From: a virus
UHGV virus genome: UHGV-0063828
Direction: 5' to 3' (one strand)
DNA length: 37,358 nt
Made by a program: the position numbers and the translations under genes. Shown piece after piece: positions 1,848-36,088 of this stretch; the first letter of the stretch is position 1, and each line of letters opens with the position of its first letter. The notes below the pieces were generated by a model, which was given only the letters and a program-made list of their open reading frames with translations, did not search any database and had not been told where the DNA came from.

Positions 1848-1873
1848 GGGACTCTTCGGAGTCCCTTTTTTTA
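1848..1873 (+). terminator. Intrinsic terminator with UUCG tetraloop
   Basis: GGGACTC-TTCG-GAGTCCC followed by TTTTTTT. Confidence 0.7.
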
Positions 1874-2812
1874 TTGGCAGTAAGAAAAGTTAGTACCGTA
1901 CATTTCATCATGAAGCATTGCAGCATTGCGTTTCTGTTCTTCTTCCTCATCTTCTACATCACTAGAAAAATGAGATTTGCCCTTAAAAGAACGAAGTAAT
2001 TGCAGTGCAGCCATCGGATCACGCATCACATCGATTTTCACTTCTACTTCATCATTTGCGGCCTCATCAGCCGCGTTTTCAACTACTGCTACCGGAGCAA
2101 CTTCTTTAGCTTTCAGTTCTTCAATCTCAGCTTTCTGTGCTTCGATAATCTGGTCTTTTTCTTCCAGTGCAGCTTTCAGTTCTGCGATCTGTGCTTCCAG
2201 TGCAGCAAAGCGATCTTCAACAACCGGAGAAACAGCATTCACCTGTGCTTCCAGTTCCAGAAATGCTTCGCAAGATTCAATACGTTCTTTCTCTTCACCT
2301 TCATAAGCAACCAGTTCTACAACTTCTTTTTCGGTAGCGTGGCTGTTAAAGAAAACAGCAAAGTAAGGATTGCCGGATTTAGTGAAGTTCAGTTTAGCTT
2401 TTCCGGTAACTTCTTTACGACGACCGAAGGTGATCTGGCAATCAGCGGTATCCTGAAAATCCATGTTAGGAGCGGAAACGATAGCAGTATCACCAGCAAT
2501 AACCAGGTGGAACAGTTCAGAAGAGTTCTTAACGGTAAAGGTAACGATGTGGTCTACTGCAACGTCTTTAGCTGGTTTAACGCGGTCGATTGCTTTACGA
2601 ATGCCGTTAGGCAGTTTACCGTCAACACCAAAGCCAGCCGCGATCAGTGCTTCACGATGTGCTTTAAAGCCAGCGAAAGCGGATTTCTGCTGTGCAAAGG
2701 AAACATGAGCAACAACTTTCGGCTGAATCTTCTTGTTTGCTTCTGTGCCAAATTTGATAACTGCTTTAGCGTTGGTTACTTCGTTAGTGAAAAAGTTAGC
2801 GGAAAATAACAT
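1871..2812 (-). CDS. Hypothetical protein with coiled-coil segment and acidic C-terminal region (313 aa)
   Basis: ATG start with GGAG upstream; heptad-like AALEAQIAELKAALEEKDQIIEAQKAEIEELKAKE; acidic stretch DVEDEEEEQ near C-terminus. Confidence 0.5.
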   Translation of the reverse strand: MLFSANFFTNEVTNAKAVIKFGTEANKKIQPKVVAHVSFAQQKSAFAGFKAHREALIAAGFGVDGKLPNGIRKAIDRVKPAKDVAVDHIVTFTVKNSSELFHLVIAGDTAIVSAPNMDFQDTADCQITFGRRKEVTGKAKLNFTKSGNPYFAVFFNSHATEKEVVELVAYEGEEKERIESCEAFLELEAQVNAVSPVVEDRFAALEAQIAELKAALEEKDQIIEAQKAEIEELKAKEVAPVAVVENAADEAANDEVEVKIDVMRDPMAALQLLRSFKGKSHFSSDVEDEEEEQKRNAAMLHDEMYGTNFSYCQ

Positions 2813-2855
2813 TATAAATACTCCGTGGAAAGTTAGTTTTAATTGTTCATTTCAA

Positions 2856-2893
2856 GCCTCCCTTGTTGCAGCAAAGGAGGCTTTTTCTTTTTT
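2856..2893 (+). terminator. Plus-strand intrinsic terminator located between two minus-strand genes
   Basis: GCCTCC...GGAGGC stem followed by TTTTTCTTTTTT. Confidence 0.55.
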
Positions 2894-2925
2894 AAAGCCA
2901 TCATATAATTCTCAGTGAAAGGTTA

Positions 2926-3108
2926 TTACCACACCTCTGCGGTAATCTTTACTTTAATGTCATACTTCTTTAAGAGTTTGTGGAAGGTTGATTGATCAAT
3001 ACCTTCACCTTTAAACCATTCACCCATCACTACATCAGGTGTCAGTTCAAAATAACGCTTTGCCATTTCTAAAACGATTTCGCGAGTGAACTTAACAGGT
3101 CGTGCCAT
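2926..3108 (-). CDS. Small HTH-type DNA-binding protein (60 aa), candidate regulator
   Basis: Strong AGGAGGA SD before ATG; borders the large repeat-rich non-coding region and is divergent from the rightward early genes. Confidence 0.5.
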   Translation of the reverse strand: MARPVKFTREIVLEMAKRYFELTPDVVMGEWFKGEGIDQSTFHKLLKKYDIKVKITAEVW

Positions 3109-3626
3109 CTCGAATCCTCCTAAATCTGGATTAATGATTTCTTAAAAAAGAGCGTTAACCGCTCACTATTATTTATATGGGGATTGTATTTTATTTTTCA
3201 ACCCCTCACATTTATCTCTTATATATGTATTTATAACAGAGATATGTTAAAATGTTATTCAGATGTTATCAGGCGTGTTAAATGTGTTAAACCACAGCAC
3301 GAATTGCTAAAGCGAAGAACACGATTTAACCAAATTGATGTTTATTCAATCAATTTAGAAAAAGGCATAGCACTTTTTGCTAAAGCGGTGAGCATTAATT
3401 GAGCTATGAATTGTAAAGATTTGTTACAAGATTTTCTCTCAGATCCAAATCTTCACAGACATATAACAATTTAACACGGTGATAACAATAGGAAGGAAAA
3501 TCGGTAAATTTTCACTTTCAATACAAATATTATACCACATTTTTCTCGAATTGTCAAGTATAGCACCAAACCTACATAGTGTCAAGAAAGGACTTTCAAA
3601 CCTACACTAGCCCTACACTATGAAAA

Positions 3627-3866
3627 TTGCCCCTGAATTTTTGCCCCTGAACCAAAATCCCCCTAGATTCCACATCCCATTTTTGCCCCTGAAACCCACT
3701 ATTTTTGCCCCTGAAATTCTGGGGAACAGTGATTTTGCCCCTCATTTTTGCCCCTGAAATGCCAATAATTGCCCCTGAAAATCTCATTTTTGCCCCTGAA
3801 ATTTGCCCCCGAAAAGGATTGGTGAGAAAAACTCTTTATAAAACATTAACTTAGTGAGGGGCAAAA
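3627..3866 (+). repeat. Iteron-like array: 7 perfect and 2 variant direct copies of TTGCCCCTGAA, plus one inverted copy
   Basis: Perfect copies start at 3627, 3641, 3683, 3705, 3748, 3769, 3790; variants at 3735 and 3803; inverted GAGGGGCAAAA at 3856-3866; same motif forms the hairpin at 6324-6345. Confidence 0.85.
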
Positions 3867-4016
3867 GCGAGGGATCGGGCGTGCATAGATATTATATAAC
3901 ACATTCGCTACGCTCATGTGTAAAACCAAAAACAACAAATAACCAAAAAGATATTAGGAGGGCGTAGCCCGACTGCGCGAAGCGCCAACCAATTACTTCT
4001 AGTAACAACTAATTTA

Positions 4017-4230
4017 AACTAGATGATCTTAGAAGGAATTAACTAGTTTGCTCGCTCGCTTCGCTCACTCTCAAACGTCTGCGACGCCACTGCGTGGCAT
4101 CGAGAATCACTTCTGAAAGGATTTTCTTGAAAGGGATTTTAAACTAGTTACTAACTGATTCTAGAAAGATAGTAATAATCACTTTGAAGATAATAGTAGT
4201 TAACTGGTTACTAGATGATTCTAGATCACT
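4017..4230. repeat. Cluster of ACTAG-centred palindromes and direct repeats
   Basis: AACTAGTT at 4041-4048 and 4142-4149; AACTAGATGATCTTAGAA at 4017-4037 vs TTACTAGATGATTCTAGATC at 4208-4229; TCTAGA sites. Confidence 0.7.
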
Positions 4231-4485
4231 TTAATGATCATGAAAGGTATTGGTTATCCCTTCGGGATTGCAACCTTCGGTTGCTAAATTGCTTCCTGAT
4301 TATAATTTCTCCAAAAGAAAGATTCTTATATTCTAAAGATACTTCTTCGTTTTGATGATGATTTAATCAAAATCTATGAAGGAGGCGAAGCCGACTGAAT
4401 CCAATCACTTCCAAATAGATAAAAAATTCTCGTTATAAATACTAGTGTAATTTGTTTGATTCACTTTCTTTTAGAGGATACCACT

Positions 4486-4938
4486 ATGATCAATACTAAA
4501 ACTCCTTTCATTCTTCTGGGTCTGAACCATGATGATAATCTGGCTATGATGCATGTTTTCGCTAATCGTGGTTATAACATCATTCGTCATTCCGAAGACT
4601 CCAATTTCTCAACTGCTTTCTATGCTCTTAAACGTAATGGTCGCCCTACGGTTATCGTAGACTGCTTTACTGATGAAGGTCGTGAACAATACAACAACAT
4701 TCCGGCAATTATTGTTCGTGATGACCTGCCGTTTGATGTTCGTGAATATGACGTTGATTTAGGCTCTTACTACGGGATCGCGGATCTTGACCAGATTATG
4801 GCTGATTATGGTAAACAACCCGCTCAGGAAGCCCCAGAACACGATGAACAAGACGAAGATGACGACGACTACGCACCAATCGCTTTTTCTTCTCACGGTG
4901 GCTTCTACGGTTACGATGAAGGCTTAGATATGCTGTAA
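4486..4938 (+). CDS. Acidic early protein (150 aa), function unknown
   Basis: AGAGGA SD before ATG at 4486 (track start 4456 is a TTG); first gene after the non-coding region; very acidic C-terminal half (EHDEQDEDDDDY). Confidence 0.5.
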   Translation: MINTKTPFILLGLNHDDNLAMMHVFANRGYNIIRHSEDSNFSTAFYALKRNGRPTVIVDCFTDEGREQYNNIPAIIVRDDLPFDVREYDVDLGSYYGIADLDQIMADYGKQPAQEAPEHDEQDEDDDDYAPIAFSSHGGFYGYDEGLDML

Positions 4939-5391: not shown

Positions 5392-5487
5392 TAAATTTCT
5401 ATCATAAATAAAATTGTTCCGGTGGTGATGCCGGAACTAGGAGGACCAATATCATTATCGCAAAACCGTTTAAGGGGAATTTTTACT

Positions 5488-6318
5488 ATGAATACTGTTA
5501 CTACTATGAATACTGCTGTTAAAACTGCTTCCGTGTCTCTGGTTGTTGATAACACCAAACCGCTGACCATGTCTTCTCGTCAGATCGCTGAATTTACCGG
5601 AAAAGAACACAAAAACGTTAAACGTGATATTAAATCCATGCTCGATGCTCTGGAATTAGATGTGCTCAGTTTTGAGCGCACCTATCTTGATCAGTGTGGA
5701 CGTGAACAAACCGAATATCACCTTGACGAAGAACTTACGCTGACTCTTGTTACTGGTTACGATGTTAAGCGTCGAATGGTTGTTATTCAGGAATGGAAAC
5801 GACTGAAAGAAGAAAATGAAAAACTGCGTTCTCAGCAAGTCAACCCATACGCAAACATGACTAAGCTCGATTGGATTCGTGAGGCAATGGAATTGGAAGC
5901 CGCAAACGAACAACTGATTCAAGAAAAGAAACAACTGGTTGAATTGCATGTTCGTAAAGCTATCGACACACACAGTCTTAGCCGCTTATTAGGCGAAAAA
6001 CGAGGCTCTACGAAGGTACAAATTATTCTGAAAGGTTTATGTGCTGCTGGTGTTCTTGAGCGTCGTCTGGATGCTTCTGGTAAGCCTAAAGGCTATGATC
6101 TGCTTCCTCCTGGCTATATGTTCGCTCGTATGTCGGCACACGGTCAGATCGAGTTCACTGCTGATGCTATCCCGCATCTCGTAAAACTCGGATTGCTTGA
6201 AGAAGAAAAGGCCGCAACTTTGAAATTGCCACAGCCGAATAACTCACGAGCAATCGTCAATAATACTGCTTTGCTGATTCGTCAGAATGCTGGATCACTG
6301 GAACACTTCGGACTGTGA
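5488..6318 (+). CDS. Rha-family phage regulatory protein / antirepressor
   Basis: Motif MSSRQIAEFTGKEHKNVKRDIKSML matches the Rha N-terminal signature as recalled; AAGGGG SD before ATG at 5488; tetraloop-free hairpin terminator downstream. Confidence 0.6.
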   Translation: MNTVTTMNTAVKTASVSLVVDNTKPLTMSSRQIAEFTGKEHKNVKRDIKSMLDALELDVLSFERTYLDQCGREQTEYHLDEELTLTLVTGYDVKRRMVVIQEWKRLKEENEKLRSQQVNPYANMTKLDWIREAMELEAANEQLIQEKKQLVELHVRKAIDTHSLSRLLGEKRGSTKVQIILKGLCAAGVLERRLDASGKPKGYDLLPPGYMFARMSAHGQIEFTADAIPHLVKLGLLEEEKAATLKLPQPNNSRAIVNNTALLIRQNAGSLEHFGL

Positions 6319-6325
6319 TAATTTT

Positions 6326-6356
6326 TGCCCCTGAATTTCAGGGGCTTTTTGTTTTC
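6326..6356 (+). terminator. Intrinsic terminator after the Rha-like gene, built from the iteron motif
   Basis: GCCCCTGAA-T-TTCAGGGGC followed by TTTTTGTTTT. Confidence 0.7.
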
Positions 6357-6397: not shown

Positions 6398-6625
6398 TCA
6401 AACTCCGTTGATTGGTACAACCTCTCCACCGTCTACACGTATAAAGAACTCGACATTAAGTTTCTTCATACTTTTATAAAACTGGGCGGTGGAGATGCCC
6501 AGATCGTTTAATACTTTCTCTCTGCTTTCTTTACCTTTGCCAGCTTTGTAAAACTCGTAGCAAATGTATGCCAGTTGTTCACGATTAAAACGGGCAGGGC
6601 GACCGCGAGTAGCTTTAGTAGTCAT
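6398..6625 (-). CDS. Small DNA-binding-like protein (75 aa) sharing a C-terminal motif with the adjacent 200 aa protein
   Basis: Start placed at ATG with GGAGAAA SD (track start is a GTG); RGRP N-terminus; C-terminal KKLNVEFFIRVDGGEVVPI resembles [21 protein letters not shown] of the neighbour. Confidence 0.4.
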   Translation of the reverse strand: MTTKATRGRPARFNREQLAYICYEFYKAGKGKESREKVLNDLGISTAQFYKSMKKLNVEFFIRVDGGEVVPINGV

Positions 6626-6660
6626 AGTCATTTTCTCCAAATTAAAGTGAATGTTCACCT

Positions 6661-7263
6661 TTATTTAGAGGACTTAGATTTTATAGGAAAAAGTTCTCCA
6701 TCGTCAATACTCATAAAGAACTCAACCTTAATCCCGTACTTCTTCAACCGTGAATAATATGTACCCCGACTTATATCAACCTTGCGAAGCACTTCAAAGA
6801 AGGATTTAGGATCGTTGTAATAGTGGCTGTACTTCACGTTAGCGAGTTCAACGAATAGTTCCCTTGTATCACCATAGCCTTTCTTGAAAGCGATGTTACG
6901 AGGCATTGTAACAGCCATATTATCCCGTGTCTGTTTCAACACTTCTCGGATCGGCTTCCACTGCAACCGATAGATAGGACCGTCATCAATGCGATAATAA
7001 CGCTTGATATCAAAATCAAACCATTCACGGACTCGCTGAAACTCTGTCTGTGATGTTCGGTGCTTCTTAAAGAAGTTATGGATATCTGTATACCCATGAT
7101 CGCGATACAACTCGATTAAAATTTGCTTCGCTTCTTCGCGACTAAAGCCGGATGTTGTGTAATCAGTCTTCTTGTGATGGTGCTTAACTGGCAAACGATA
7201 TTCATGATCGGTACAAGACAAGGCTAATTCTAATTCATCTCTTTCTTGCTGATTAATTAGCAT
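6661..7263 (-). CDS. Hypothetical protein (200 aa) with repeated HTH-like modules
   Basis: Strong AAGGAGGG SD; internally repeated helix-rich units; divergent from the large terminase gene. Confidence 0.5.
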
Positions 7264-7350: not shown

Positions 7351-9258
7351 ATGAAACTGATTTCTAATAAGGCAAAATTAAAAAAGATTCTTAAAAATGC
7401 AGCCAAATATATTACGCCACCGCCTAAGCTCCTTCCTTCTGAATGGTGCGAAGCGAATCTAACGCTAGTCGATGGTCCTCGTGCTGGGGATAAAGTTAAA
7501 TTACTGTCATTTCAGAAAGGCATGATTGATGCTCCTTTCCTTGAGAAGAAAAAGAAGTACGTTTTTTGTACGAGTGCGCAGATCGGAAAGACGACCATCA
7601 TGTCAGGGATCATGTTTAACCAGATGGCAAACGATCCGTGCAATATCATTATCGGGCAAAGTACCGCTAAAGAAGTGGCTATGTACTTGAATACTAAGAT
7701 CCGTCCTTCTATTGAAGCATGTCCGGCATTACAGGAAGTGGTAACAGATAAGAATGATCGTAATGCGGTAAACAACAATAACCAGATTCAGCTAAAAACA
7801 AACCATTTCCTTTACATGGTTTCTTTGACCAGTCCTTCAAGTTTGCGTGGGCGTACTGCCAAGTTAGGGATTGTAGACGAATGCGACGCAGCAACAATCA
7901 CCGAAGAAGGTTGTCCGGTGGCACTAACTGCAAACCGTTTAACTACCTTTGGTGATGAAGCTCGATTGATTGTTTCTAGTACCCCAACCAATAAGCTGGG
8001 AATCATTAACCAGCAATGGTTATCAAGTGATATGCGTATGTTTTTTGTTCCGTGTCCTCATTGCGGGGAACACCAGGTGATCGAGTGGGAAAACGTTCAA
8101 TTTGAATGGCGTAACATCGATGGTAAGAACTTACCCGATCCTGATACCGCTCGTTATATTTGCCCCCACTGTAAGAACGCATGGACCGAAGGGGAACGAA
8201 TCAGGGCAGTAGCACAAGGCGAGTGGAGAGCAACCCGTGAAAGTGAGGTAGCAGGATTCTGGATCAGCCGTCTGTATTCACCTTTCAGCACGATCCGCGC
8301 TTGTGTGGTTGATTTTAGTCATGCGTGGCAATCCTTTGATTTACAATCATTTTATAACACCGTGTTAGGCAAGGTATACGACGATCAGGACACGGCAGTA
8401 GAAGCAAATGAACTGGAACAACTCAAAACAGATGTTTCTATCGAGAATATCCCTGATGACGTAATTTTCTTGTGCTCAGGAATTGACCAGCAATTGGACC
8501 GCGCAGAATCTACCATCTTAGGTGTAGCGAAAGATAAGGTTTACATTCTGGATCACCGCAGCTTTTACGATCATAACTGTGAACGATACGAATCACCTGT
8601 TTGGGATCGTCTGGTTAACTTCAAGAAAACCAAATTCTATAACGTTAATGGTGAACGTGTGCCAATGCTCGCCAGCTTCCTTGATACATCGAACGGTCGA
8701 TTCACTCAAGCCGGATACCGTATTTGCGGCAAGTGGAAGAACCTACACGCTATCAAAGGTAGTTCATCTGGTAATGCTCCAGTGATTCCGGTTAAACCTA
8801 CCCGCACAGGTGGTCATGAATTGCTTATGTTGGGTGTTAACGTTGGGAAATCTGCTGTTCGTGAAATGTTGGTTAGAAACCTGAAAGACAATCCTCACAT
8901 TGGCTTAGAAATATCAGAAACCGTTCCTGATGATTATCTCGATCAGCTTTTGAGTGAATCCATCAAGCGTACTACTACTGGCGTGCGTTGGGTGAAAAAT
9001 CCAGGTAGTACCCGAAACGAGGCTCTCGACTGTCTGGTTTATAGCTATGCTGCTTCTCGCTACGTCCTTTCAAAAATGTCATGGGATAAACTCATTGCAA
9101 TGAAAGACAGCTTAAACCGTGTTGTCGAAGAATCCGTAAAAGCTCCTGAAACGCAATCTGACGAGCAAATCGAAGAAACTAAGCCAATCACACGACCGCA
9201 ACGTCAAAACATCGCCAGACGCCCAAATAGAGGCCGTAGCTGGGTAACATCGTTCTAA
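7351..9258 (+). CDS. Terminase large subunit, lambda gpA family
   Basis: P-loop region [10 protein letters not shown]; zinc-ribbon-like CPHCGEHQ...CPHC; GIDQQLDR and RNEALDC motifs as recalled from lambda gpA. Confidence 0.9.
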
Positions 9259-13842: not shown

Positions 13843-14248
13843 TAATATGCCGAGACTGAAAATCAAACGCGCCTTGCAAGATATTATCGAACAAGATTTA
13901 GGTCTGGCTTTAAACGTAGAACAAACTCAGCAAGGCTTTAGTGATGATGTGGTTTGTTGGATCACCGGAATGAATGAGACTTACACTAGGGTCCGTGGTG
14001 GTAATGCAATGCAAGCTGAATGCGTTATCGAAATGCAATTGTATTCTCAGATTCATGAAACCAAAATTCATGAGGGTATTTGCCAGATAATCCAGATTCA
14101 GCCGGATAACCCACGTTTTAAAGATTTGGGCTTCGCTATTTCAGATATCACTCCAGTAGCTTCTAATACCGATTATGACGATGATTCTAGTGATGGGGGT
14201 ATCGTTGGGACACTTAGCCTTAAATTTTCTTATCTAGCGCGTTTTTAA
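13826..14248 (+). CDS. Putative head-tail connector protein (141 aa)
   Basis: Start placed at ATG 13826 with GGGGG SD, overlapping the previous gene end; positional inference only. Confidence 0.4.
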   Translation: MLATVNNMPRLKIKRALQDIIEQDLGLALNVEQTQQGFSDDVVCWITGMNETYTRVRGGNAMQAECVIEMQLYSQIHETKIHEGICQIIQIQPDNPRFKDLGFAISDITPVASNTDYDDDSSDGGIVGTLSLKFSYLARF

Positions 14249-34359: not shown

Positions 34360-36039
34360 TTAAATTCCAAATTCCTGTAATGGACCTGGTATTTCCTCTT
34401 CTGGTTTCCAGTTCTTATCTGTCAGCATGTCTAAACATGGATGCAAAACAAGCCCGTTACTTTCCAGAATCTGCCTATCATTGATAGTTTTCAAATCAAT
34501 GAATATCCGGCCTTTCCTCGTTCCTCTTGAATTTTCTATTACAACTCTCTGGGTTTTTCCATCGATGTATTCCAGTACAAACAAGTTTTTGTTTCTGTCA
34601 ATCCTGCTACACCCGATCCGCTTTAGAGCTTGCTTAATCTTAAACCGGACCTTTAGTCGTTCCTCGTTGTAAACATCTTCTAAATCAAATTCTGCGAGCT
34701 TCTCCCAGCCTTGAGAGTCAACAGAATACATTTCCTCTTCTGCCATCTTGATCTGATTGTAGAGTGTTTCACGCTCGCTATTGAGGGTAGTAATCTGATC
34801 GGCTAGTTCCTTCGTTGCTCCTGTCATAGCAGAAAGGGCAATCAGGTTATCAATCTTGCGTGATATCTCATCAACCTGTACTTTCAACGCCGGAACCGGA
34901 TTAGCCTTATCCTCAGCAATCCAGATTTTATCAGCCAGCAATTGCAATACAGCTTTCTCTAATTGATCACCTCGAAAACTCCAGTTTGGATGCTCGCAAT
35001 CAAGTCTACGTGAACGGGTCGCATCACATGTATAACGATACTGGTCAGAACGTTTGTTCGTTCCCTTCACTTTAACCATAGCGCAACCGCAATGATCACA
35101 TTTCAATAGGCCAATACCACTAAGCAGGGGGATCGGTTTAACTTCTTCCTTGTCTCCAAAGTTCCATGCTCTAGCACCAATATTTTTCTTAAGGTGATAG
35201 AACGTAGCATCATCAATAACACGAGGGTAATAATCCTTTAACTCATAGTTAACGCCATCTACAGAGACCTCCTTGATACCAATCAAAGCGCGGGTATGAA
35301 ACAACCTTTCAACCATTGCCCGTGACCATTTTGAATGCTTCTTATTACTAACCGCTGGTGGTGGTGCATATGTCTCGTTAAGGTGATCCAGTATTTCGGC
35401 GGTTGAACGTCCATTCTTCCGTAATTCCACAATCTCCTGAACAACAGGGAAGAAGACCGGATGAGGCAACACATAACCGGAAGTGGTATCAGTCCACCAC
35501 ATATTCTTTCCAACTTCCTCGATTGCCACTGCCGGATTCTGGGGATTTTCTTGATGGGCTTTAATCTTAATCAGTGCGCTTGAGTTAGTACGATTGCGCT
35601 TAGTCTGGCTTTCCTCATTACCACGGATGAATAAAAGGATGGAGAACATCAGGTCCATCGGATTAGCGGTAACAGTATCCAGCGAGTAGATCTTGTTATC
35701 CATGCCAGTAACAATGGTTATCCCCCTACGGATTATTGAAAGGAATAACTCCTGCGCACTGACAATATCGGCACGGGATAAACGGTCCAAGTTTTCAATG
35801 AATAGCCAGCTACCAACAGGAACGGATCTACCAATTGCATCAAGGAAACGAGATAGCGCCCCTGTTTTAGAGTTAGCACCTTTAAACGCAGATACACCCA
35901 GATCCTGATAATCATTTACCAGTTCTAAGTCATACTTTGCCGCAATCTCTCTCGCCATCCTGATTTGTCGTTCATAACTCGAACCATCACTCTGACGCAT
36001 AGACGAGAAGCGAATATACGAATACAGTTTAGTTTTCAT
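34360..36039 (-). CDS. Large serine recombinase (integrase)
   Basis: N-terminal resolvase-type catalytic domain (YSYIRFSSMRQ, ENLDRLSR); cysteine-rich zinc ribbon (CDHCGC...YTCDA...CEH); C-terminal coiled coil; ~559 aa from ATG at 36039. Confidence 0.85.
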   Translation of the reverse strand: MKTKLYSYIRFSSMRQSDGSSYERQIRMAREIAAKYDLELVNDYQDLGVSAFKGANSKTGALSRFLDAIGRSVPVGSWLFIENLDRLSRADIVSAQELFLSIIRRGITIVTGMDNKIYSLDTVTANPMDLMFSILLFIRGNEESQTKRNRTNSSALIKIKAHQENPQNPAVAIEEVGKNMWWTDTTSGYVLPHPVFFPVVQEIVELRKNGRSTAEILDHLNETYAPPPAVSNKKHSKWSRAMVERLFHTRALIGIKEVSVDGVNYELKDYYPRVIDDATFYHLKKNIGARAWNFGDKEEVKPIPLLSGIGLLKCDHCGCAMVKVKGTNKRSDQYRYTCDATRSRRLDCEHPNWSFRGDQLEKAVLQLLADKIWIAEDKANPVPALKVQVDEISRKIDNLIALSAMTGATKELADQITTLNSERETLYNQIKMAEEEMYSVDSQGWEKLAEFDLEDVYNEERLKVRFKIKQALKRIGCSRIDRNKNLFVLEYIDGKTQRVVIENSRGTRKGRIFIDLKTINDRQILESNGLVLHPCLDMLTDKNWKPEEEIPGPLQEFGI

Positions 36040-36051
36040 ACCATTTCCAAA

Positions 36052-36088
36052 CAAAAACGCCCCTACCGTGTATTATAACGATAGGGGC
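36052..36088 (-). terminator. Minus-strand terminator between secreted-protein gene and integrase start; loop contains TATAAT
   Basis: On minus strand GCCCCTA...TAGGGGC stem followed by GTTTTTGTTT; candidate integrase promoter overlaps. Confidence 0.45.

Follow-up and report, generated by a model that had tools for sequence, protein, structure and literature searches.

An array of short direct repeats in the early intergenic region of an Escherichia coli prophage is assigned here, with high confidence and from comparisons of sequence, as the cognate binding site of the N-terminal domain of a 313-amino acid (aa) protein that is encoded close by. Judged from the same comparisons, this domain and the array are swapped together between related phages as a specificity module. 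The best overall explanation of the pair is that the array is a cluster of binding sites which forms an origin of replication, and that the protein is its initiator, of a new kind; we favour this explanation, while holding it to be a little short of probable.

The repeat array

In the window, by which we mean the whole analysed stretch of 37,358 nucleotides, the array (type B in the classification given below) occupies positions 3627..3813 on the plus strand and consists of nine direct units. Seven of these are exact copies of TTGCCCCTGAA, starting at 3627, 3641, 3683, 3705, 3748, 3769 and 3790, and two are variants, TTGCCCCTCAT at 3735 and TTGCCCCCGAA at 3803, so that the distances from start to start are 14, 42, 22, 30, 13, 21, 21 and 13 bp. 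The last direct unit is followed by an A+T-rich spacer of 41 bp (3814..3854) and then, on the minus strand at 3855..3866, by a terminal inverted unit, TGAGGGGCAAAA, which is the reverse complement of the variant unit at 3733-3744. The count in the original prediction, i.e., seven exact and two variant direct copies and one inverted copy between 3627 and 3866, was thus correct. When the flanks of the units are taken into account, the repeated element is about 14-15 bp long, (T)TTTTGCCCCTGAAA, with the extended consensus TTTTTGCCCCTGAAA. Relatives also retain two degenerate units, one at 3657-3667 (ATCCCCCTAGA) and one, inverted, at 3719-3726 (CTGGGGAA).

The exact 11-mer TTGCCCCTGAA occurs eight times in the window when a copy in a terminator further to the right is included, as compared with 0.00 expected from 100 shuffles, and the 14-mer TTTTTGCCCCTGAA occurs six times, the terminator copy again included, with 0.00 expected in shuffled sequence. 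A motif search across the whole prophage, proposed earlier as a check, finds these copies confined to array and terminator, with just three 7-mer cores of the motif elsewhere in the window, which is the chance level. From this confinement follows that compositional bias is excluded as the origin of the array.

The array had also been expected to be non-coding and unlike a CRISPR, and this is borne out. No RefSeq gene is annotated over it in E. coli genomes, and the small open reading frames that cross it are by-products of the repeats. A CRISPR array would have regular repeats of 24-48 bp with spacers of similar length, whereas the units here measure 11-14 bp and are irregularly spaced by 13-42 bp. 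No Rfam family was found for the region at gathering or relaxed thresholds, and ARAGORN found no tRNA in or near the array.

Constraint on the motif is seen when 20 distinct related type-B arrays are aligned. Among the columns of the motif, 4 of 99 are variable, as against 14 of 86 in the spacers (p = 0.006), and the copy number ranges from 6 to 10 and changes through insertions and deletions of the size of a unit. The 41-bp spacer at 3814-3854, with about 70% A+T, is nearly invariant in the same alignment.

Co-variation of array type and N-terminal domain

The compared loci came from 21 related viral contigs found by way of the large terminase and 18 found by way of the motif. Four array types occupy the same position in these related prophages. 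The type-A array is made of AAACCTACACTA, in 6-10 copies with spacings of 13, 44, 22, 14 and 19 bp; the type-B array, that of the window, has the core TTGCCCC; the type-C array, from locus L033, is built from TCCCCG in about 16-20 copies, many of which follow each other at 11 bp, and is adjoined by a second array with a period of 8 bp; the type-D array, from Proteus mirabilis, has about 16 copies of CTAGGGAT(G/A), seven of them in exact 11-bp tandem, with palindromic copies at the end.

Between loci, the window shows a mosaic: its segment 1875-2812, with the gene for the 313-aa protein, and its segment of about 3177-4242, with the array and the DNA next to it, are kept together or replaced together. 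The product of the replacement gene has the same architecture, in which an N-terminal domain (about 170 aa) precedes a coiled coil and an acidic tail, and its N-terminal domain is unrelated or distantly related to that of type B. Array type matches N-domain type in 32 of 32 loci from three genera (22 of type B, eight of type A, one of type C and the Proteus type D, with no exception), many of which are closely related, so that the independent events are fewer. The flanking genes behave differently: neither array type is tied to particular variants of the 60-aa protein (54-100% identity), of the 160-aa protein (55-100%) or of the small terminase (52-100%). Since the types of N-domain and array co-vary while the flanking genes assort freely, the array is the putative binding site of the 313-aa protein. 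In Providencia P0134, a type-A-like N-domain is joined to a different C-terminal half and stands beside a type-A array, and from this hybrid follows that it is the N-domain alone that tracks the motif, also across genera. Gene order is the same in the distant homologues from Proteus mirabilis and Providencia.

The left boundary of the exchanged cassette lies exactly at the first type-B unit. It is marked in the window by three vestigial type-A units, AAACCTACA, AAACCTACACTA and CCCTACACTA (3567..3622, plus strand), which overlap the leftward promoters described below and are missing from type-B loci with another left flank (L006, L013 and L018).

These data also bear on packaging. The direct repeats and the one inverted copy of the array, by G+C-rich sequence, recall the R sites in the cosB region of phage lambda, and the array lies between the genes for the small terminase (639-1208) and the large terminase (7351-9258), as might be expected of a cosB- or pac-type site recognised by terminase or by an accessory specificity factor. 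We nevertheless regard such a site as most unlikely: the small terminase gene is 2.4 kb from the array and its variants (83-100% identity) are distributed without regard to array type, the large terminase region is conserved in all array types, the partner that does co-vary belongs to an early operon on the opposite strand, and a better candidate for cos is the G+C-rich segment (about 440-560) directly upstream of the small terminase gene. The two terminase genes are about 6 kb apart, with the whole early region between them.

In locus L033, two paralogous family genes for proteins of 333 and 337 aa are found at 2640-4682, and side-by-side arrays, one of TCCCCG units and the one of 8-bp period built from ACCTACA and ACCAATA, are found at 5540-5885; the numbers of genes and arrays fit one protein per array. 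An inverted copy of the type-A core, ACCTACAC, occurs within the coding region for the type-A N-domain, at about codons 72-74 (L020 1496, minus strand; L045 8222, plus strand), in both E. coli and Providencia, and may simply be conserved coding sequence.

The 313-aa protein

The gene for the putative array binder occupies 1871..2812 on the minus strand. The N-terminal domain of its product (about residues 1-170) has a pI of 9.6 and is followed by a coiled coil (about residues 181-236) and an acidic tail, the pI of this remainder being 4.3. Among the ten family members for which these values were computed, the window protein included, seven have an N-domain with a pI of 9.4-9.8 and three one with a pI of 6.2-8.3, while nine of the ten have an acidic remainder.

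The protein is found almost exclusively in E. coli. It belongs to no family in Pfam, NCBIfam, PHROG or PADLOC, it matches just coiled-coil segments among PDB sequences, profile search included, and tblastn against phages and plasmids gave no match. Out of 1.8 billion cluster representatives about eleven proteins were matched, the cluster of the query included, and three of these are long repetitive proteins and apparently spurious. While a single-sequence AlphaFold model was poor (pLDDT 46), a model from an alignment of 13 sequences reached an overall pLDDT of 66, with about 80-90 over N-domain residues 31-110; three fold searches returned no informative relative. The protein is not a member of the known initiator families Phage_rep_O, Rep_3, RepA_N, TrfA or DnaA-like, and no nicking motif is conserved in its family.

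Many family members, and likewise the 80-aa coiled-coil protein that accompanies type A, have AA or VA after a hydrophobic residue at the C-terminus, as in LKAA, RRAA, AYAA and RIVA (P0122, P0126, P0134, P0136, P0138, L020 717-1712 and L033 2640-4682). Such ends resemble a ClpXP degradation tag; the window protein ends in FSYCQ instead.

The prophage and its distribution

The window corresponds to a prophage of E. coli that measures about 36 kb and is integrated in ycdX. The same element is found inside ycdX in E. coli ETEC1703, and position 1 of the window is close to the left attachment site. Besides the Nu1-like small terminase and the gpA-type large terminase, the prophage encodes structural and lysis proteins, a UvsW-like helicase, two endonuclease-like proteins and a large serine recombinase (34360-36054). 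When the region was compared by megablast with collections of phages and plasmids, no close relative came up, the best match of the large terminase to a sequenced phage or plasmid being 43% identical; PADLOC made no defence assignment, and a literature search for the ycdX prophage returned nothing relevant.

The family is present in 63 of 5426 complete E. coli genomes (about 1%), in 33 of them with a type-B array, and it occurs also in Salmonella, Proteus and Providencia. A first scan of a genome collection with the large terminase gave no match, and a second gave one distant relative, in Atlantibacter, which has neither the family protein nor the array, a joint absence that speaks for the pairing of the two. 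E. coli BS74R-D carries two related prophages (L046 and L047), one in ycdX and one in hicB, from which follows that the family uses at least two attachment sites; their 313-aa proteins are identical and their type-B arrays are not. Two type-B arrays each are carried by 4 of the 33 genomes with a type-B array.

Repeats of this kind may also serve in partition. The parC site of plasmid R1 consists of 11-bp iterons, in ten or more direct repeats, which are bound cooperatively near a promoter by ParR. Here as there, ten or more short direct repeats are found with a phasing of about 11 bp, most clearly in types C and D, where 15-20 short units are phased at 11 bp, and the coiled coil of the 313-aa protein could mediate pairing. 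The array would then be a centromere-like partition or tethering site, and the protein would bind it as ParR binds parC. This we consider very unlikely, for no gene for a ParA, ParM or TubZ-type NTPase was found in the prophage, the protein is of neither the small ribbon-helix-helix nor the ParB type, each of the 66 occurrences in complete E. coli genomes is on the chromosome and none on a plasmid, and no plasmid homologue was found; R1, in contrast, has a ParM-type partner and a ribbon-helix-helix protein, and is not an integrated element.

The 60-aa protein, an 86-aa protein (6398-6658, minus strand) and the C-terminus of a 200-aa protein (6661-7263, minus strand) share a paralogous helix-turn-helix-like segment, GIxxxTFxKLLKKYxIKV, which makes three related small DNA-binding proteins in one prophage. 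ARAGORN calls a putative tRNA-Gln (anticodon ttg) at 14013-14103 on the minus strand, within a plus-strand open reading frame of the structural region.

The early intergenic region and a possible role in transcriptional control

The array is situated in an intergenic region of 1.35 kb (3109-4455) between divergent early operons. The leftward operon begins with the gene for the 60-aa helix-turn-helix-like protein (2926..3108, minus strand), whose variants are independent of array type, and continues with the gene for the 313-aa protein; the rightward operon consists of a 160-aa gene, a 110-aa gene and a Rha-like gene. In consensus scans, which are the only basis for the promoter positions given here, two tandem near-consensus sigma-70 promoter-like sites are found at 3529..3585 on the minus strand, with 12/12 and 11/12 matches and both with an extended -10 element. 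They read leftward, away from the array, and the type-B units begin 42 bp past their upstream edge. In the rightward direction, the best promoter-like sequence directly precedes 4456, at a distance of about 600 bp from the array.

The strong leftward promoters are followed, at 3140..3525 on the minus strand, by about 380 nt of structured leader or non-coding RNA. Its folding has a z value of -6.3, and 0 of 100 shuffles fold as well. At the 3' end, immediately ahead of the ribosome binding site of the 60-aa gene, is a hairpin that resembles a terminator (3164 to 3150) and is followed by a T-run, and the hairpin is preserved via compensatory changes in L020 and L041. This leader may be an attenuator or a regulatory RNA.

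Between the promoter and the operon of the 60-aa and family proteins, relatives have LexA boxes. In the Salmonella relative (L041 280-398), three exact boxes, CTGT-N8-ACAG, are found upstream of the operon within 120 bp, as compared with 0.08 expected in the whole 9.9-kb locus, and the E. coli type-A flanks (L020 2111-2229) have three boxes, one exact and two with one mismatch. No convincing box was found in the left flank of the window, where the best candidate, at 3282-3297, has one mismatch.

On the other side of the array, a conserved part of the intergenic region (4100..4290, plus strand) contains a second, type-independent set of repeats, ATCACTTT..., GAAAGGRATT and ACTAGNTGATTCTAGA, and two hairpins with UUCG loops at 4252-4285. 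The repeats of this set, ATCACTTTGAAGAT, GAAAGGGATT and ACTAGATGATTCTAGA (4100-4290 and 4400-4420), are kept together with the UUCG hairpins across all array types, and both are conserved also in Proteus and Providencia. Probably they serve as sites for a conserved regulator, or else they belong to a structured leader at the 5' end of the rightward operon.

With promoters so near, the array could instead be a transcriptional control element, and the 313-aa protein an autoregulator, activator, silencer or repressor of the lysogeny switch. The protein would then coat the array and control the leftward promoters, and perhaps also the rightward operon by looping, and its specificity would be of the immunity kind. 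This regulatory role is the main rival to the origin, although we hold it to be unlikely. In heteroimmune phages, the immunity regions comprise elements such as the c repressor of Mu and the direct-repeat operators of phi105. As in these regions, a module of protein and site is swapped here between similar phages in a divergent early region, and several specificity types in near-identical prophages make up the classic heteroimmune pattern. The domain order of the Mu repressor (DNA-binding domain, coiled coil and tail) recalls that of the 313-aa protein, many members of the family end in AA in the manner of a ClpXP tag, and the array is 45-100 bp upstream of the two near-consensus leftward promoters, or about 200 bp in other flanks. 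The sites of heteroimmune regions are, however, not placed off the promoters as they are here, where the type-B units overlap neither the leftward nor the distant rightward promoter, and 9-20 sites far exceed typical operators. The LexA boxes of the relatives imply production of the protein upon SOS induction and not in lysogeny. Furthermore, the two type-B prophages of BS74R-D share one chromosome and four genomes carry two type-B arrays each, a co-residence within one type that would not be expected of an immunity determinant.

Replication as the proposed function

We infer with moderate confidence that the array is an iteron-type origin with a new kind of initiator. Upon induction of the prophage, the 313-aa protein would be made from the leftward operon. 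Its basic N-domain, encoded about 800 bp to the left of the array, would bind the array units and the coiled coil would allow the protein to multimerise, so that copies of it would fill the 9 to 20 short units, which are spaced by about one, two or four helical turns. One large nucleoprotein complex would in this way form in the middle of the early intergenic region. The complex would be the replication origin of the phage, and the protein a non-enzymatic initiator that recruits host replication factors; N-domain and array, exchanged jointly between related prophages, would set the specificity.

The argument for an origin starts from what the prophage encodes. Within its approximately 36 kb we could recognise neither a polymerase, primase or helicase loader nor a known initiator, a UvsW-like helicase being all that was found, and the origin is favoured because the phage needs an initiator and no other is visible. 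It is favoured also because the early promoters flank the array without overlapping it, because the LexA boxes upstream of the operon in relatives imply expression on induction, because two prophages of one type reside together in BS74R-D, and because the succession of direct repeats, A+T-rich 41-bp spacer and inverted repeat resembles known origins. Two properties by which iteron origins are recognised, a surplus of non-coding direct repeats and a nearby protein with matching specificity, are both found, the latter as genetic co-variation. The co-variation with the N-domain and the constraint on the motif support the original prediction of direct repeats that bind a protein. Of the three roles which that prediction had allowed for the protein, initiation fits best; packaging is unlikely because the small terminase is independent of array type, and partition because a partner NTPase is lacking and the element is integrated.

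Other observations speak against an origin. There is no strongly A+T-rich unwinding element, as the A+T content near the array peaks at about 76% when read in windows of 50 bp, and a single DnaA-box-like site (3917) is found there; the scan for origin signals found no IHF consensus near the array, and the GC skew has a minimum between 4 and 8 kb that is confounded by gene orientation. The layout of inverted copy and spacer is not conserved across types: terminal inverted copies also close the type-C array of L033 and the type-D array of L043, and none was seen in type-A arrays. The left flank of the window itself is without good LexA boxes, and the protein has no homologue on any plasmid, where a role in replication would be self-evident. 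Finally, specificity has diversified strongly among prophages with about 90% identity, a pattern more characteristic of systems driven by conflict, such as immunity.

A wider claim would be that the 313-aa protein founds an undescribed family of sequence-specific DNA-binding proteins with interchangeable N-domains, each with its own array of 9-20 repeats, and that together they make up an origin-initiator system of a new type in uncharacterised Enterobacterales prophages, with expression gated by a structured leader RNA and in some members by LexA. This composite is possible, and somewhat more doubtful than the function of the pair in the window. If the array is an origin and the protein its initiator, they would represent a new initiator fold with at least four orthogonal specificities of protein and site, which could be used to study how specificity of DNA recognition is rewritten, and as orthogonal parts for replication or DNA binding, and they would explain how a group of prophages without recognisable replication genes replicates. 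If the function is regulatory instead, the strict co-variation of N-domain and array would still provide a system for dissecting a new DNA-binding domain.

Comparison with known systems

In lambda with O and ori-lambda, in plasmids with Rep and in the PLE with RepA, non-coding direct repeats are found by the gene of a protein that matches the repeats, as is the case here. In the PLE satellite of Vibrio cholerae, a non-coding repeat region and one open reading frame are necessary for replication (PMC7145576). Iteron origins in general exchange specificity as a unit of protein and site, and it is the N-terminal part of the initiator that binds DNA, which leaves the remainder available for interactions, as predicted here. 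There are also differences. The 313-aa protein has no similarity to the iteron initiators (Phage_rep_O, Rep_3, RepA_N and TrfA) or to another initiator family, iteron units are 17-22 bp long as compared with about 8-14 bp for the more numerous units of the prophages, the repeats of lambda lie inside O whereas the prophage repeats lie outside the gene, and no clear unwinding element or cluster of DnaA boxes is seen in the prophage.

Shorter units are known from the origins of SaPI and PICI elements and from the alpha system of P4 with ori and crr, where many iterons of 6-8 bp, direct and inverted, are specific to the initiator of each element. The array here is like these in its short units in many copies, in both orientations, and in being specific to its element. 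Their initiators are primase-helicases with ATPase domains, in contrast to the 313-aa protein, which has no enzymatic domain. Tandem 11-bp direct repeats are the high-affinity initiator site of plasmid pMV158 RepB, the bind locus (PMC1851628). This locus resembles the tandem 11-bp array of Proteus type D, but RepB is a rolling-circle nicking enzyme with three repeats, and the family described here has no conserved nicking motif. Overall, the prophage pair is best read as a new variant on the theme of iterons and initiator, with a functional array paired with a new family of DNA-binding proteins by a mechanism that we infer.

The copy of the motif in a terminator

The eighth exact copy of TTGCCCCTGAA, at 6325-6335, is the left arm of the hairpin in an intrinsic terminator (6322..6353, plus strand) that follows the Rha/Ant-like gene (5422-6318). 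The hairpin, GCCCCTGAA TTTCAGGGGC at 6327-6345 followed by TTTTTG, has a stem of eight pairs, six of them G-C, and a 3-nt loop, is followed by TTTTTGTTTT, and begins 9 nt past the stop codon of the Rha-like gene. With a G+C-rich stem-loop and a T run at the end of a gene it has the features of Rho-independent termination, and it has the Rha operon on one side and the terminase and late genes on the other. Its left arm together with the upstream T-run is the array 14-mer TTTTTGCCCCTGAA. The reuse of the motif after the Rha-like gene, as originally predicted, is thereby confirmed in an exact copy where 0.00 are expected.

From the shared motif it had further been suggested that a protein might modulate termination, and to this the distribution of the terminator gives no support. 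The terminator motif is confined to the prophage family in E. coli (29 E. coli genomes). It is present with type A in 5 of 8 loci, with type B in 6 of 8 and with type C in 1 of 1, i.e., with three types alike, and missing in the relatives from Proteus, Providencia and Salmonella. Being independent of array type, the terminator copy has not co-evolved with the array-binding protein, and control of termination is rejected as a conserved function.

The array could also act as RNA, if GCCCCUGAA transcripts were to pair with the right arm of the terminator (6327-6345) and thus block termination between early and late genes. The exact 14-mer common to the array and the left arm of the terminator is not due to chance, and the position of the terminator, ahead of the terminase and late genes, would suit such a switch. 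Even so, this is the least probable of the alternatives: the same terminator is found in type-A and type-C phages, which are without such repeats, the array co-varies with a protein domain and not with the terminator, RNA from the array shows no unusual structure when its folding is compared with that of shuffled sequences (z = -1.0 and +0.5), and there is no good promoter into the array, the best promoter-like site that reads into it matching 9/12 positions.

It is possible that the motif reached the terminator by recombinational spread, as the original prediction had offered as its other explanation, or that the copy is a relic of recombination. In type-B phages the terminator, with its two inverted 9-bp cores, may be an extra binding site.
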